From a virus (taxonomy: Duplodnaviria > Heunggongvirae > Uroviricota > Caudoviricetes), in the IMG/VR virus record IMGVR_UViG_2690316166_000015: a DNA stretch of 4,880 nt, one strand, 5' to 3'. Shown one piece after another: positions 1-4,597 of this stretch (position 1 is the stretch's first letter; every line of letters starts with the position of its first letter). The translations under genes and the position numbers were made by a program. A model generated the notes under the pieces. The model saw only the letters and a program-made list of their open reading frames with translations. It ran no database searches and had not been told where the DNA came from.

Positions 1-48
1 AAGTCTGTGAATACGTTCAAGAACCCCGGCTGCCGCAATGTTTTTCAT
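1..48 (-). CDS. 5' end of a CDS running off the window start (ATG at 48; first residues MKNIAAAGVLERIHRL). Possibly a DnaC/P-like helicase loader, judged only from operon position and N-terminal style.
   Basis: ATG at 48..46 on the minus strand, preceded by GGGGGTGA (Shine-Dalgarno-like) about 7 nt upstream; begins 6 nt after the stop of the upstream initiator gene; open to the window edge. Only 16 codons visible, so product assignment is a guess. Confidence 0.35.
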   Translation of the reverse strand, partial: MKNIAAAGVLERIHRL

Positions 49-54
49 GCCACA

Positions 55-1119
55 TCACCCCCTGAATCCCGGCGGAATTTCGGTATCCGGTTCAGAAATA
101 TGATTCACACAACGCTGGTTGTTCGTGCCGCTTACCGGGAGCAACCAGGGGTTTTCAAAATTCCGGTCCGGCCCAAAAAACGTCGTCGCTCGCTGAACAA
201 ATTCCGTTCCCGCTTTCCCGGTCGCCGCCAGGTATCTCGCGTAACGCCTCACACCATCCAGCATGGTCTCTGGTGGCACCCCCTCGCGCAATCTGGCCTT
301 CCAGGCACTGAATGCGGATTTCTTCGGGTTTGCCCCGGCACGCAACGGGTATTCCCGCCAGACCTGTTCGAACACATCCGGATAATCCACTCGTCCCACA
401 GGCTGCCCGGTGTTTTCCGGGGCTACCCGATCGGCTTCCCGCTGAATGGCGGAATCGGCTTCAGGCTGCTGCAGTTGGAGTGATTGCTCCGGCCTTGCGG
501 TCATCACCTGCTGCACAGCGCCCGAATCGGCTTTCAGCGCATACGCTGAATCGGCTTCCGGTGTCGAGCCTGCTGGCTGACCAGGATTGACGGTCTGAAC
601 ATCCCCTGCCTGGTTCGTGGCGTTTTTTACGCCATGGACCATAGTGTTTTGATCTTCTTTATCTGTATCTTTATCTGTATCTGTCGTGACTCGTCGTGAC
701 ATGTGCGTGACATTTCGTGACGCGCCGTGACAATCGCCATTTTGTTCCCGCTTTCTTTCCCTCTCTCGCTGCGCCCTCTTGCGCTCTGCAGGAGATTTTG
801 CGGTTTGCGAAATATTGCCGTTGTCCTCTTTAAGCACCTGGCGTTTTTCCCATCCAGTGATTAAATCACCATCAAGTACCCGCCCCTGCATCGTCTGCAA
901 AATTGAATCAATTACCTCTTCTGTCACGTCGAGCGCACTTGCCAAATCTTCTGTCGTGACATCAATGTGACCTCGCGTGACATTTCGTGACGCGCTCACC
1001 AGGAGGTGGATATACACTGCCATCACTGTTGCAATTGGCTGCCCTGACACCCTGGCAATTGTTCGCCACTTAGGGTCATTTGGCATGTCATGCCATAATC
1101 TGAGCCAGGCGTTAGCCAT
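55..1119 (-). CDS. Phage replication initiator (lambda O-like / prophage replication-protein family), about 354 aa
   Basis: Long minus-strand ORF from the six-frame track (55..1125). I place the start at ATG 1119..1117 (MANAWLRLWHDMPNDPKW...) because GAGGTG lies 4-5 nt upstream; the GTG at 1125 sits inside that Shine-Dalgarno. Architecture: N-terminal domain, charged low-complexity linker (ERKRAQRERERKREQ, DTDKDTDKED), C-terminal domain with YPDVFEQVWREYP...KKSAFSAWKARL, which I recall from prophage replication proteins. Iteron-like repeats lie inside the gene. Family recalled from memory, not searched. Confidence 0.7.
   Translation of the reverse strand: MANAWLRLWHDMPNDPKWRTIARVSGQPIATVMAVYIHLLVSASRNVTRGHIDVTTEDLASALDVTEEVIDSILQTMQGRVLDGDLITGWEKRQVLKEDNGNISQTAKSPAERKRAQRERERKREQNGDCHGASRNVTHMSRRVTTDTDKDTDKEDQNTMVHGVKNATNQAGDVQTVNPGQPAGSTPEADSAYALKADSGAVQQVMTARPEQSLQLQQPEADSAIQREADRVAPENTGQPVGRVDYPDVFEQVWREYPLRAGANPKKSAFSAWKARLREGVPPETMLDGVRRYARYLAATGKAGTEFVQRATTFFGPDRNFENPWLLPVSGTNNQRCVNHISEPDTEIPPGFRG
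658..681. repeat. Perfect 12-bp tandem direct repeat TTTATCTGTATC x2 in an AT-rich stretch
   Basis: Read directly: 658-669 and 670-681 are identical. On the minus strand this encodes the DTDKDTDK part of the initiator linker. Confidence 0.9.
681..731. repeat. Iteron-like cluster A: five CGTGAC hexamers at about 10-11 bp phasing
   Basis: CGTGAC at 685-690, 695-700, 706-711, 716-721, 726-731 (spacings 10, 11, 10, 10). Contains a 21-bp block GCGTGACATTTCGTGACGCGC (705-725) repeated perfectly in cluster B. Confidence 0.8.
921..1000. repeat. Iteron-like cluster B: four phased GTGAC-containing units plus one inverted copy
   Basis: CGTGAC at 955-960, TGTGAC at 966-971, CGTGAC at 976-981 and 986-991; inverted copy GTCACG at 923-928. 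CTGTCGTGAC (951-960) and the 21-bp block (975-995) are perfect copies of 681-690 and 705-725, both offset by exactly 270 bp. Confidence 0.8.
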
Positions 1120-1190
1120 ACTCACCTCTTCTGATACCGAATCTTTTTACTCACGAGTTGCCGGGAGCGATTCGATATGGCTATTGTCAG

Positions 1191-1616
1191 TCAATGTACT
1201 GCCACAGCATTTCCTGCCGGGCCACCACGGTTCATCTGATTGAAACCGGCGATTGCCACTGCGACAAAATCATCAGCGTCTCTCACCAGTCGTTCATGCG
1301 TCTCCACCAGTTCCCGAAAATAAGCTGAACTGTGGCTGCGCATTCGAGCCACCAGCGGAGGTGGCATTGCCCTTTCGATCGCAGGTAACAACGCCTGAAT
1401 TTTTTCAACAGCGTCAGGGGTGTCTTTATCCAGCCAACGGAAAATCTTTTGGGTGTTGAGATAAAGCGTGTTGTGCTTGCTGTCGTTATGCAGAACCGGA
1501 AACGTCATTCCCAGTTCGAAATAAACCCTGGTTATTTCAGCTGCCGGAACTTTTTCACCGTCCGGATGCGCCCAGGCTTTCATCGCCATGCGGATGTGTT
1601 CATGCTTGATTTTCAT
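1191..1616 (-). CDS. ydaT: YdaT-like protein (prophage CII-like regulator / putative toxin family), 141 aa
   Basis: Complete ORF in the track; N-terminus MKIKHEHI matches my recollection of Rac prophage YdaT-family proteins; sits between an upstream regulator-side gene and the replication initiator as in Rac-type early operons; start overlaps the upstream gene stop (ATGA). Confidence 0.65.
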   Translation of the reverse strand: MKIKHEHIRMAMKAWAHPDGEKVPAAEITRVYFELGMTFPVLHNDSKHNTLYLNTQKIFRWLDKDTPDAVEKIQALLPAIERAMPPPLVARMRSHSSAYFRELVETHERLVRDADDFVAVAIAGFNQMNRGGPAGNAVAVH

Positions 1617-1781: not shown

Positions 1782-2926
1782 NNNNNNNNNNNNNNNNNNN
1801 NNNNNNNNNNNNNNNNNNNNNNNNNNNNNNNNNNNNNNNNNNNNNNNNNNNNNNNNNNNNNNNNNNNNNNNNNNNNNNNNNNNNNNNNNNNNNNNNNNNN
1901 NNNNNNNNNNNNNNNNNNNNNNNNNNNNNNNNNNNNNNNNNNNNNNNNNNNNNNNNNNNNNNNNNNNNNNNNNNNNNNNNNNNNNNNNNNNNNNNNNNNN
2001 NNNNNNNNNNNNNNNNNNNNNNNNNNNNNNNNNNNNNNNNNNNNNNNNNNNNNNNNNNNNNNNNNNNNNNNNNNNNNNNNNNNNNNNNNNNNNNNNNNNN
2101 NNNNNNNNNNNNNNNNNNNNNNNNNNNNNNNNNNNNNNNNNNNNNNNNNNNNNNNNNNNNNNNNNNNNNNNNNNNNNNNNNNNNNNNACACAAGGGGCGG
2201 TAAGTCACTANNNNNNNNNNNNNNNNNNNNNNNNNNNNNNNNNNNNNNNNNNNNNNNNNNNNNNNNNNNNNNNNNNNNNNNNNNNNNNNNNNNNNNNNNN
2301 NNNNNNNNNNNNNNNNNNNNNNNNNNNNNNNNNNNNNNNNNNNNNNNNNNNNNNNNNNNNNNNNNNNNNNNNNNNNNNNNNNNNNNNNNNNNNNNNNNNN
2401 NNNNNACCAGCAGACACAGAACAAACAGAGGATGANNNNNNNNNNNNNNNNNNNNNNNNNNNNNNNNNNNNNNNNNNNNNNNNNNNNNNNNNNNNNNNNN
2501 NNNNNNNNNNNNNNNNNNNNNNNNNNNNNNNNNNNNNNNNNNNNNNNNNNNNNNNNNNNNNNNNNNNNNNNNNNNNNNNNNNNNNNNNNNNNNNNNNNNN
2601 NNNNNNNNNNNNNNNNNNNNNNNNNNNNNNNNNNNNNNNNNNNNNNNNNNNNNNNNNNNNNNNNNNNNNNNNNNNNNNNNNNNNNNNNNNNNNNNNNNNN
2701 NNNNNNNNNNNNNNNNNNNNNNNNNNNNNNNNNNNNNNNNNNNNNNNNNNNNNNNNNNNNNNNNNNNNNNNNNNNNNNNNNNNNNNNNNNNNNNNNNNNN
2801 NNNNNNNNNNNNNNNNNNNNNNNNNNNNNNNNNNNNNNNNNNNNNNNNNNNNNNNNNNNNNNNNNNNNNNNNNNNNNNNNNNNNNNNNNNNNNNNNNNNN
2901 NNNNNNNNNNNNNNNNNNNNNNNNNN
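1782..2926. other. Unreadable: three N-masked blocks (1782-2187, 2211-2405, 2436-2926) with two short readable islands (2188-2210, 2406-2435)
   Basis: Sequence is N; no inference possible about content. Island 2406-2435 ends ...CAGAGGATGA and island 2188-2210 contains TAA and a minus-strand TAG, consistent with short intergenic spacers but not diagnostic. Confidence 0.99.
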
Positions 2927-3131
2927 CCTTCCAAGGTCGTTTTGCCTTACGATATTCGTCATAAACTTTGGGGTCGTACTGAAGTTCCCCGCCAGATGCC
3001 TCTTGCAGGCGCATCGCGCGACCTTCAGGAACCAGTTCCCCCCATGCAGCAATGCTTGCCAGCCTAACTCCTGCGGCATTGGCAAGCTTTGTTTTGCTGC
3101 CAAAAAACGCTATAGCATCAATTTTCAACAT
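2927..3131 (-). CDS. dicC: Cro-like small DNA-binding protein (DicC / P22-Cro-like); 3' end lies in the masked block
   Basis: ATG at 3131..3129 on the minus strand with AAGGAG Shine-Dalgarno 6-7 nt upstream (complement of 3137-3143). Visible 68 aa: MLKIDAIAFFGSKTKLANAAGVRLASIAAWGELVPEGRAMRLQEASGGELQYDPKVYDEYRKAKRPWK, which resembles P22 Cro/DicC as I recall them. Divergent from a DicA-like repressor. Stop codon not visible. Confidence 0.65.
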
Positions 3132-3207: not shown

Positions 3208-3615
3208 ATGAAAAACGAAACCTTCGGTGCTCGCCTCTTACATAGGCGTAAAAAATTAAAACTGTCTCAGGCCGCATTAGGTAAGCTGGTCAAAGTGGCT
3301 CACGTAACAATTTCTCAATGGGAAAGAGATGAAACACAGCCGGCGGGGAAAAGATTATTCGCACTGAGCCAAGCGCTTCAGTGCTCACCGACTTGGCTTC
3401 TTTTTGGGGATGAAGATAAACAACCAGGCGAACCGATCCCGGATAATCAGCCAGCCATTCTGACAGAAGATCAAAAAGAGTTACTTCAACTGTTCGACGC
3501 ACTGCCTGAGTCAGAGCAAAAGGCCCTGTTGTCAGAGATGCGTGCTCGAGTTGAAAATTTCAACAAACTTTTTGAAGAACTACTCAAAGCTCGCAAAAGA
3601 AGCGCAAACAAATAA
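3208..3615 (+). CDS. dicA: HTH XRE-family repressor, DicA-like (CI-functional analogue), 135 aa
   Basis: Complete ORF. Sequence ...LSQAALGKLVKVAHVTISQWERDETQPAGKRLFALSQALQCSPTWLLFGDEDKQP...MRARVENFNKLFEELLKARKR matches my memory of E. coli Qin prophage DicA closely. Divergent to a cro-like gene and followed by a ydfA-like gene, as in the Qin dicA locus. Confidence 0.8.
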   Translation: MKNETFGARLLHRRKKLKLSQAALGKLVKVAHVTISQWERDETQPAGKRLFALSQALQCSPTWLLFGDEDKQPGEPIPDNQPAILTEDQKELLQLFDALPESEQKALLSEMRARVENFNKLFEELLKARKRSANK

Positions 3616-4444: not shown

Positions 4445-4597
4445 ATGGATACTATCGATCTTGGCAACAACGAATCTCTGGTGTACGGCGTGTTCCCCAA
4501 CCAGGACGGCACATTCACCGCCATGACGTATACCAAAAGCAAAACGTTTAAAACCGAATCTGGCGCGCGTTGCTGGTTAGCCAGAAACACTGACTGA
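4445..4597 (+). CDS. ydfA: YdfA-like small protein (DUF1391-type), about 50 aa
   Basis: ATG at 4445 preceded by GAGG (4436-4439) 5 nt upstream; MDTIDLGNNESLVYGVFPNQDGTFTAMTYTKSKTFKTESGARCWLARNTD matches my recollection of Qin YdfA. The track ORF starts at 4391, but that ATG has no Shine-Dalgarno, so I prefer 4445. Confidence 0.6.
   Translation: MDTIDLGNNESLVYGVFPNQDGTFTAMTYTKSKTFKTESGARCWLARNTD

Follow-up and report, generated by a model that had tools for sequence, protein, structure and literature searches.

Two phased hexamer arrays within a prophage replication initiator gene: probable iterons of an embedded origin

What is the role of a short DNA motif that recurs at nearly constant spacing within the coding sequence of a replication protein? 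The question is raised by a stretch of 4,880 nucleotides from a member of the Caudoviricetes (IMG/VR record IMGVR_UViG_2690316166_000015; "the window" below means this whole stretch), in whose replication initiator gene the hexamer CGTGAC, or GTCACG in coding sense, occurs in two clusters. A preliminary description had listed five CGTGAC at 685, 695, 706, 716 and 726 and four GTGAC at 955, 966, 976 and 986, spaced by 10-11 bp, and an exact search confirmed all of these positions. Comparison with relatives makes it quite probable, in our view, that the two clusters are initiator-binding iterons of a phage origin located inside the initiator's own gene. The features from which the argument starts are the following.

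55 to 1119, minus strand: replication initiator (replisome-organizer) gene, 354 amino acids from the ATG at 1119; the open reading frame (ORF) listing gives a GTG at 1125.
685 to 731, minus strand: downstream or linker array, five direct GTCACG units (the five plus-strand CGTGAC listed above).
955 to 991, minus strand: upstream or N-domain array, four direct units (GTCACG at 991-986, 981-976 and 960-955; GTCACA at 971-966).
923 to 928, plus strand: single inverted iteron copy, CGTGAC in coding sense, encoding D-V-T, 27 bp downstream of the upstream array; absent from the preliminary description.

CGTGAC was found nine times in the window against 1.39 +/- 1.13 expected, a number reached by none of 200 dinucleotide shuffles, and all nine exact copies fell within the initiator gene (55-1119). 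The window is masked with N in places, and the hexamers sit in unmasked sequence. The ORF that contains every copy (55-1125, minus strand) matched phrog_3729, "replication initiation protein" (E-value, E, 3e-250), which bears out the earlier placement of the clusters in a replication-initiator gene; close relatives of the protein are named "phage replisome organizer" at NCBI. In coding sense the units are spaced by 10/10/11/10 bp in the linker array and by 10/10/11 bp in the upstream array (plus-strand CGTGAC at 955, 976 and 986, variant TGTGAC at 966). The two arrays have the same orientation, with a gap of ~230 bp between them, and are linked by an exact 21-bp direct repeat (705-725 = 975-995) offset by 270 bp, as previously described; the shorter repeat has the same offset but is 11 bp long (680-690 = 950-960) instead of 10. 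In the related 46-kb phage Tritos, GTCACG is at chance level genome-wide (25 sites for ~23 expected), and its sole clusters are two, both within the initiator gene; a third cluster, like oriR of phage SPP1, was sought across the 46-kb genome and none was found.

Repeats of this kind could be a by-product of an internal coding duplication, the peptide SRNVT being present twice, with no function at the DNA level. Both occurrences of the 21-bp repeat share one frame (270 bp, or 90 codons) and each encode ASRNVT, as expected from such a duplication. The other hexamers, however, are in the other two frames, the five linker hexamers together using all three (C-H-G, S-R, V-T, M-S-R, V-T), and the 10-bp phasing of both arrays would be needless for a peptide repeat. 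The preliminary description had proposed that homologous genes be compared at synonymous positions. We made this comparison on 62 loci with relatives of the initiator protein, one genome per species, spanning Enterobacteria, Pseudomonas, Bordetella, Chromobacterium, Stenotrophomonas, Sphingomonads, Acidobacteria metagenome-assembled genomes (MAGs) and others. The codon test used the 22 loci, from many genera, whose upstream array encodes AS[RQ][NS]VTRGHxxVT, with the usage in the same genes as background. The codons within the hexamers were distributed as follows.

Val: GTC in 22/22 at both Val positions (background 0.22).
Thr: ACG in 22/22 at both Thr positions (background 0.23).
Gly: GGT in 22/22.
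His: CAC in 22/22 (background 0.60).
Ser: TCA in 21/22 (background 0.14).

The Arg codon of the spacer varied in the same 22 loci (CGA/CGT/CGC/CGG = 9/6/6/1), and synonymous sites thus appear to be saturated except inside the hexamers. A second set, of 80 close IMG/VR relatives with 62 distinct sequences, gave the same picture for the linker array: 0/30 core positions varied as opposed to 6/26 spacer positions (Fisher p = 0.007). In many members of the family the two arrays shared identical stretches of 17-21 bp, both in frame and out of frame (the latter in L003, L005, L031 and L038), and in L022 and L025 GTC was replaced by GTA, which is synonymous for Val, at most units of both arrays. With core codons fixed at synonymous sites across genera while the spacers drift, the coding duplication failed the proposed test, and we give it next to no credence. 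The hexamers are, as judged from these alignments, under purifying selection at the level of DNA and not of protein.

The core of the hexamer differs between lineages. GTCACG was found in most gamma- and beta-proteobacterial loci, GTAACG in L022, L025, L031, L035, L044 and L045, and CGAACG/GAACGC in many beta- and alpha-proteobacterial loci. When the CG-containing hexamer with the most copies in the linker was traced through the rest of the gene, ~45 of the 56 analysable loci had it two to four times in the 84-bp segment encoding the N loop, as opposed to 0-1 times in the other ~500 bp. The two-cluster layout, previously presented as unusual, is so in comparison with lambda, P22 and L, but within this initiator family two clusters are the rule. 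The inverted copy also co-varies with the core, according to the codons used: GTCACG-type loci that keep DVT always have GTG for Val (background 0.32), which yields GTGAC, and the GTAACG-type L025 has GTT ACA, an inverted GTAAC. Linker arrays consist in most loci of 3-6 units, 10 bp and now and then 11 bp apart, and the segment of the upstream array is variable in length, with insertions of seven codons, equal to two iterons. Overlapping units 5 bp apart, with two core types mixed in one array, were observed in the linkers of some enterobacterial relatives, L026 and L022/L025 (GTCACGTCACGTCACG; GTAACGTCACGTAACG).

Conserved sites of this kind could also be read by another protein, such as a CII/YdaT-like activator or a host factor. 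Lambda CII binds direct repeats; the units here are short and directly repeated at intervals of one helical turn, a YdaT/CII-like gene is located directly upstream in the window, and a weak promoter-like match covers the linker array on the plus strand (707-734). However, only 5 of the 62 loci have a YdaT-like gene in the 2.5 kb upstream, whereas most have arrays, and these always lie inside the initiator gene. The core type went with the lineage of the initiator rather than with the host, more than one type being present both in Pseudomonas and in enterobacterial loci, and the promoter match was at chance level (one found, 1.1 expected). A binder other than the initiator is, on this evidence, very unlikely. 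CII/YdaT itself was ruled out, its gene being absent from most array-bearing loci, and a promoter within the arrays, or an antisense transcript starting there, was likewise rejected, the one weak match being at chance level.

Iterons of an origin would be expected beside a place where the duplex can open. Two elements that the preliminary description had missed follow the linker array.

641 to 684, minus strand: AT-rich purine tract of tandem 12-bp GATACAGATAAA units, encoding DTDKDTDKED; putative DNA-unwinding element.
611 to 641, no strand assigned: 13-bp inverted repeat, imperfect (TGGTTCGTGGCGT / ACGCCATGGACCA), beyond the AT-rich tract as seen from the linker array.

The tract (GATACAGATAAAGATACAGATAAAGAAGAT in coding sense) comes directly after the five-unit linker array, and its guanine-plus-cytosine (GC) fraction of 0.25 at 641-680, compared with ~0.55 in the flanks, is the minimum of the gene. 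A strict pattern for an (AGATAA)n/(AGATAC)n/(AGAGAA)n purine tract was matched directly after the linker array in 46/59 loci, whatever the core type, and the tracts of relatives code for DK, DT or EEKR repeats. Among near-identical relatives (L067-L146), with initiator genes of 1065-1107 bp, the copy number of GATACAGATAAA ranged from ~1.5 to 6 units, so that the protein linker has a (DTDK)n stretch of variable length. Perfect inverted repeats of at least 7 bp were present within 70 bp after the tract in 30% of loci versus 4.4% of control windows. In the window the inverted repeat codes for the conserved peptide MVHGVKNATNQ and obtained a terminator-like score on the plus strand in a terminator scan; other lineages have a different palindrome at the corresponding place (e.g., CGCGCACGTGCGCG in L003). 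In the loci compared, the order iterons, AT tract, palindrome is conserved in the family, and the linker array, the tract and the palindrome are all coded in a linker predicted to be disordered. DnaA boxes, or a DnaA-trio-like reading of the GAT-AAA tract, gave no convincing match, as judged by eye only. The lambda-like embedded origin of the preliminary description is supported by the association of iterons with an AT-rich tract, as in ori-lambda and SPP1 oriL, and by the DNA-level conservation of the cores.

Which part of the protein could read the iterons, and what could the rest of it do? Besides the N domain, two segments are of interest.

742 to 798, minus strand: basic helix (residues ~108-126, AERKRAQRERERKRE), just upstream of the linker array; helix 110-126 in the AlphaFold2 model.
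58 to 387, minus strand: C-terminal DnaT-like domain (residues ~245-354), including the terminal SEPDxEIPPGFRG motif, from profile matches.

The AlphaFold2 model was built on 42 sequences, and its predicted local distance difference test (pLDDT) score was > 90 for residues 11-90. The N domain (residues 1-98) was modelled as a helix (29-45), a loop with a short strand (46-55), two helices (56-63 and 67-77) and a hairpin (78-88), predicted to follow the order of elements of a winged helix. Helices 1 and 2 of this domain are joined by the loop SRNVTRGHIDVT, and it is this loop that the upstream array encodes, 130-165 nt from the start of the coding sequence. Top Foldseek matches of the N domain included the DNA-binding domains of CRP/FNR, MarR, ArsR and GntR proteins, all with E > 0.4 and not significant. 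The basic helix (110-126), a disordered linker (131-241) and a C domain (245-332) follow in the model. A family profile matched the DnaT C-terminal domains of the PDB (6aep, E 8e-7; 2ru8, E 7e-5; 9zbt, E 3.5e-4) and PF17948 is recorded on homologues of the initiator; the window protein alone matched only NCBIfam DnaT (E 0.0016), over its last 24 residues. This suggests that the C domain binds single-stranded DNA (ssDNA) and/or takes part in the hand-over to DnaB-DnaC. The N domain could not be placed in a known family of origin binders, the matches with Pfam, NCBIfam, Foldseek/PDB and hhalign being all sub-threshold, and at E <= 1 the window protein matched no Pfam family of the lambda O type; of the 43 families that the 42 members matched, the first 25 likewise include none.

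Members of this mosaic initiator family combine one N domain with C domains of more than one kind. In eight proteins of ~180-190 residues (P0154, P0172, P0174, P0185, P0206, P0209, P0213 and P0232), the N domain is fused to an HNH endonuclease (PF01844/PF14279), which takes the place of the linker and the recruiting domain. In L048 (2501-3691) and L059 (2501-3802), an inserted domain (YVYYVATTDGDVVRVGISRNPWAR...) replaces the linker, and no iteron arrays were recognisable; its only Pfam match was a sub-threshold one to MUG113, a GIY-YIG-related family (E 0.004).

Outside the loop encoded by the iterons, the alignment columns that best tracked the core type were those of the basic helix, L026 being an exception. 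The correspondence was the following.

Residues K..Q: GTCACG core, 26/27 loci.
Residues A/G/S..W: GAACG core, 13/16 loci.
Residues V/A..Y/F: GTAACG core, 6/6 loci.

The basic helix may therefore be considered a candidate specificity determinant, although the pattern is confounded by phylogeny and should be taken as a lead and not as proof. The locus L041 is a natural recombinant, in which the winged helix of a GAACG lineage is combined with a basic helix (K..Q) and a linker array of the GTCACG type. L041 and L054 (both 2501-3000) are ~80% identical in nucleotides over the winged-helix part, and they part ways beyond codon ~98; the positions of the three upstream CGAACG units of L054 are all mutated in L041, with the flanks conserved. 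It would thus seem that an upstream array persists only where it fits the specificity of the initiator, and the same pattern argues against the loop itself as specificity determinant. It is doubtful that the binding site and its reader share one stretch of DNA, the upstream array encoding a surface loop of the winged helix that would read the iterons or make protein-protein contacts. If the loop did read the iterons, site and specificity element would be inseparable by the very frequent mosaic recombination among phages and would have to change together. In a weaker version, the origin may be bipartite, the initiator looping the two arrays and loading torsional stress onto the AT tract.

Could recombination itself be what the repeats are mainly for, serving as junctions where modules are exchanged or stretches deleted or duplicated in frame, protein binding being secondary? 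Iteron and 12-bp tract copy numbers do differ between relatives, L041 is recombinant with a junction between winged helix and basic helix, and the family is mosaic in its C domains. The L041 junction, however, is not at an array, and deletions of 270 bp were found in 0 of the 62 distinct close relatives. Recombination would also leave the fixed cores with free spacers, the 10-bp phasing and the AT tract unexplained; we consider it highly improbable as the main role.

Retaining the two arrays as iterons of an origin read by the initiator, we infer a course of events running from initiator binding through unwinding at the tract to origin firing. Upon derepression, transcription of the rightward operon (minus strand) would provide the initiator and the DnaC-like loader. 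The N-terminal winged-helix domain, probably with the adjacent basic helix, would bind the GTCACG units, and with units one helical turn apart the bound initiators would line one face of the DNA. The five-unit array (685-731) abuts the 25%-GC purine tract (641-684), where the duplex would open, and the C-terminal DnaT-like domain would hold ssDNA and/or recruit the host DnaB via the phage loader. The four-unit array (955-991) and the inverted unit (923-928) would offer second sites for the same protein in the same origin complex. The upstream array may help, by cooperative loading or looping, or restrain, by autoregulation, titration, handcuffing or as a fork barrier.

A restraining role leads to an alternative in which the linker array and AT tract alone form the origin, the upstream array and inverted copy being a regulatory operator: the bound initiator would block or throttle transcription of its own gene and that of the loader, be titrated, or handcuff the origin array to limit firing. 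Counterparts of such an operator would be the auxiliary arrays of P1 (incA) and F (incC), or oriR, the second G38P-binding site of SPP1. The AT-rich tract touches only the linker array; the upstream array, at 130-165 nt of the coding sequence, has a head-to-head inverted unit of the kind seen in the autoregulatory half-sites of iteron plasmids, and it is dispensable in some lineages, which fits an accessory control. In SPP1, moreover, the second initiator-binding region is not a firing origin (PMC6316719). On the other hand, no promoter was found at the array, the promoter scan being at chance level, and negative copy control has no obvious use in a lytic burst. The sequence does not separate the roles of enhancer and brake. 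We hold an operator to be possible, if clearly the less favoured option, and it refines the reading of the arrays as initiator-binding iterons, since the protein and the sites are the same.

Several points weigh against an origin at these arrays. The loci are phylogenetically related, so that counts such as 22/22 do not represent independent events. The upstream array was not recognisable in ~10 of the 56 loci, which suggests that it is accessory and not indispensable. The helical register between the two arrays, examined in 45 loci by circular statistics, had a resultant length R of 0.42 for a period of 10 bp, and we did not count it as evidence because shared ancestry and the gain or loss of whole iterons yield the same pattern. 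Against PF09681 (Phage_rep_org_N), the window protein scored 12.8 bits, below the cut-off of 23.3; this sub-threshold match covers the whole profile (5-122 versus 1-118 of 121), and among family members 6/42 match, with a best E of 1e-4. The alignment of the N-domain profile to SPP1 G38P with hhalign had a probability of 0.2%, a weak result since a single G38P sequence was used, and Foldseek gave no significant structural match between the N domain and proven origin binders. Literature searches on this initiator family, on GTCACG iterons and on Shiga toxin (Stx)-phage Eru replication modules turned up no description of the origin, and none of the 24 deposited phage genomes with the N domain is a studied replication model.

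How does the proposed origin compare with known systems? Lambda has four ~19-bp dyad-symmetric iterons beside a 39-bp AT-rich tract (PMC6022878), while P22 and L have a single mid-gene cluster, with six 11-bp repeats in L (PMC8022706). As in lambda and in gene 18 of P22 and L, the origin would lie in the reading frame of the initiator, between the DNA-binding and the recruiting domains (PMC6022878, PMC8022706). Further similarities with lambda are the succession of iterons and AT-rich unwinding tract, the location in a disordered linker as in lambda O, and the presence of a helicase-loader gene after the initiator gene in a repressor-controlled rightward operon of a lambdoid prophage. The window protein, however, is not an O homologue, and its C domain is DnaT-like whereas that of lambda binds P. 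Its units are direct repeats at 10-11 bp with an asymmetric 6-bp core, in contrast to the dimer-bound inverted repeats of lambda, and there is a second array with an inverted unit within the region coding for the DNA-binding domain. The repeats and unwinding element of SPP1 are inside gene 38, with a distant second site, oriR (PMC5737612, PMC6316719), for which a role as fork barrier has been proposed (PMC6316719). Direct repeats beside an AT-rich unwinding element in its own gene are common to G38P and the window initiator (PMC5737612, PMC6316719), as are a second, separate set of sites and the naming as "phage replisome organizer" (NCBI, Pfam); but homology between G38P and the window protein is not demonstrable, and the second site of SPP1 is intergenic and ~13 kb away, that of the window being ~230 bp away in the same gene.

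The last ~110 residues of the window protein match structures of the C-terminal domain of Escherichia coli DnaT (primosomal protein I), including the PDxxIPPGFRG tail. DnaT, however, acts in PriA-dependent restart without sequence-specific origin binding, whereas the domain is fused in the window to an N domain predicted to be sequence-specific. Iteron plasmids (P1 ori/incA, F ori2/incC, RK2 oriV) have two direct-repeat arrays per initiator, which co-evolve with initiator specificity, and there too only one array adjoins the unwinding element. They differ by another Rep family, by iterons of 17-22 bp and by arrays that flank the rep gene, those of the window being inside coding sequence; a control function is proven for the auxiliary array of plasmids, and is a candidate only here. 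What sets the window apart from lambda, P22, L and SPP1, as read from its sequence, is the different and unstudied protein family, the short-core iterons at one-turn spacing, the DnaT-like recruiting domain, and the second, co-evolving array within the sequence coding for the DNA-binding domain.

Its gene content marks the window as the immunity/replication region of a lambdoid prophage, with the rightward operon on the minus strand. The following neighbours of the initiator gene were recognised.

1 to 48, minus strand: first part of the following gene, for a DnaC-like ATP-binding homologue of helicase loaders (MKNIAAAGVLERI...), read from the sequence and running off the window.
1191 to 1616, minus strand: YdaT/CII-like regulator, upstream gene of the same operon (PF06254, E 5e-9; phrog_163 "CII-like transcriptional activator", E 3e-40).
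Ending at 3131, minus strand: P22-Cro/DicC-like gene, from the domain search.
3208 to 3615, plus strand: DicA-like helix-turn-helix (HTH) repressor, from the domain search.

The initiator likely starts at ATG 1119, preceded by AAGAGGTGA, rather than at GTG 1125, given the better ribosome-binding site (AAGAGGTGA followed by 2 nt) and the agreement with the N termini of database relatives (MANAW...). The loader fragment matched the "ATP-binding protein" WP_000788759.1, encoded downstream of the initiator in L001. Three IMG/VR contigs encode a protein 100% identical to the initiator (tblastn). In the DicA-like repressor (3208-3615) only the HTH domain was found and no peptidase domain, and a DUF1391 gene (4445-4597) comes next; in Tritos (L064, 29083-29686), dicB and DicF are located beyond the DUF1391 gene, which indicates an element of the Qin/DicA immunity type.

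That an origin can be embedded in an initiator gene is textbook knowledge for lambda. To this the present analysis adds an origin map, comprising two arrays, a putative unwinding tract and a palindrome, together with a family-wide rule of cores shared by both arrays and a candidate specificity helix. The upstream array falls on codons for Val, Thr, Ser and His, and synonymous recoding could therefore erase it with the protein unchanged, an unusually clean way to ask what an auxiliary iteron array does. From the map one could forecast which prophages sharing a host are incompatible in their replication, those of Shiga-toxin-producing strains included, and design origin/initiator pairs of narrow specificity.

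Of 5426 complete E. coli genomes, 3234 gave megablast matches to the left 1.78 kb of the window, the best at ~96% identity. The N domain is present in ~2250 cluster representatives at 50% identity, in Proteobacteria and beyond. Near-identical gene copies (97-99%) were also found on short contigs assigned to Gram-positive taxa, namely L061 (MAG "Collinsella sp.") and P0133 ("Staphylococcus saprophyticus"), and most likely correspond to contamination or mis-binning.

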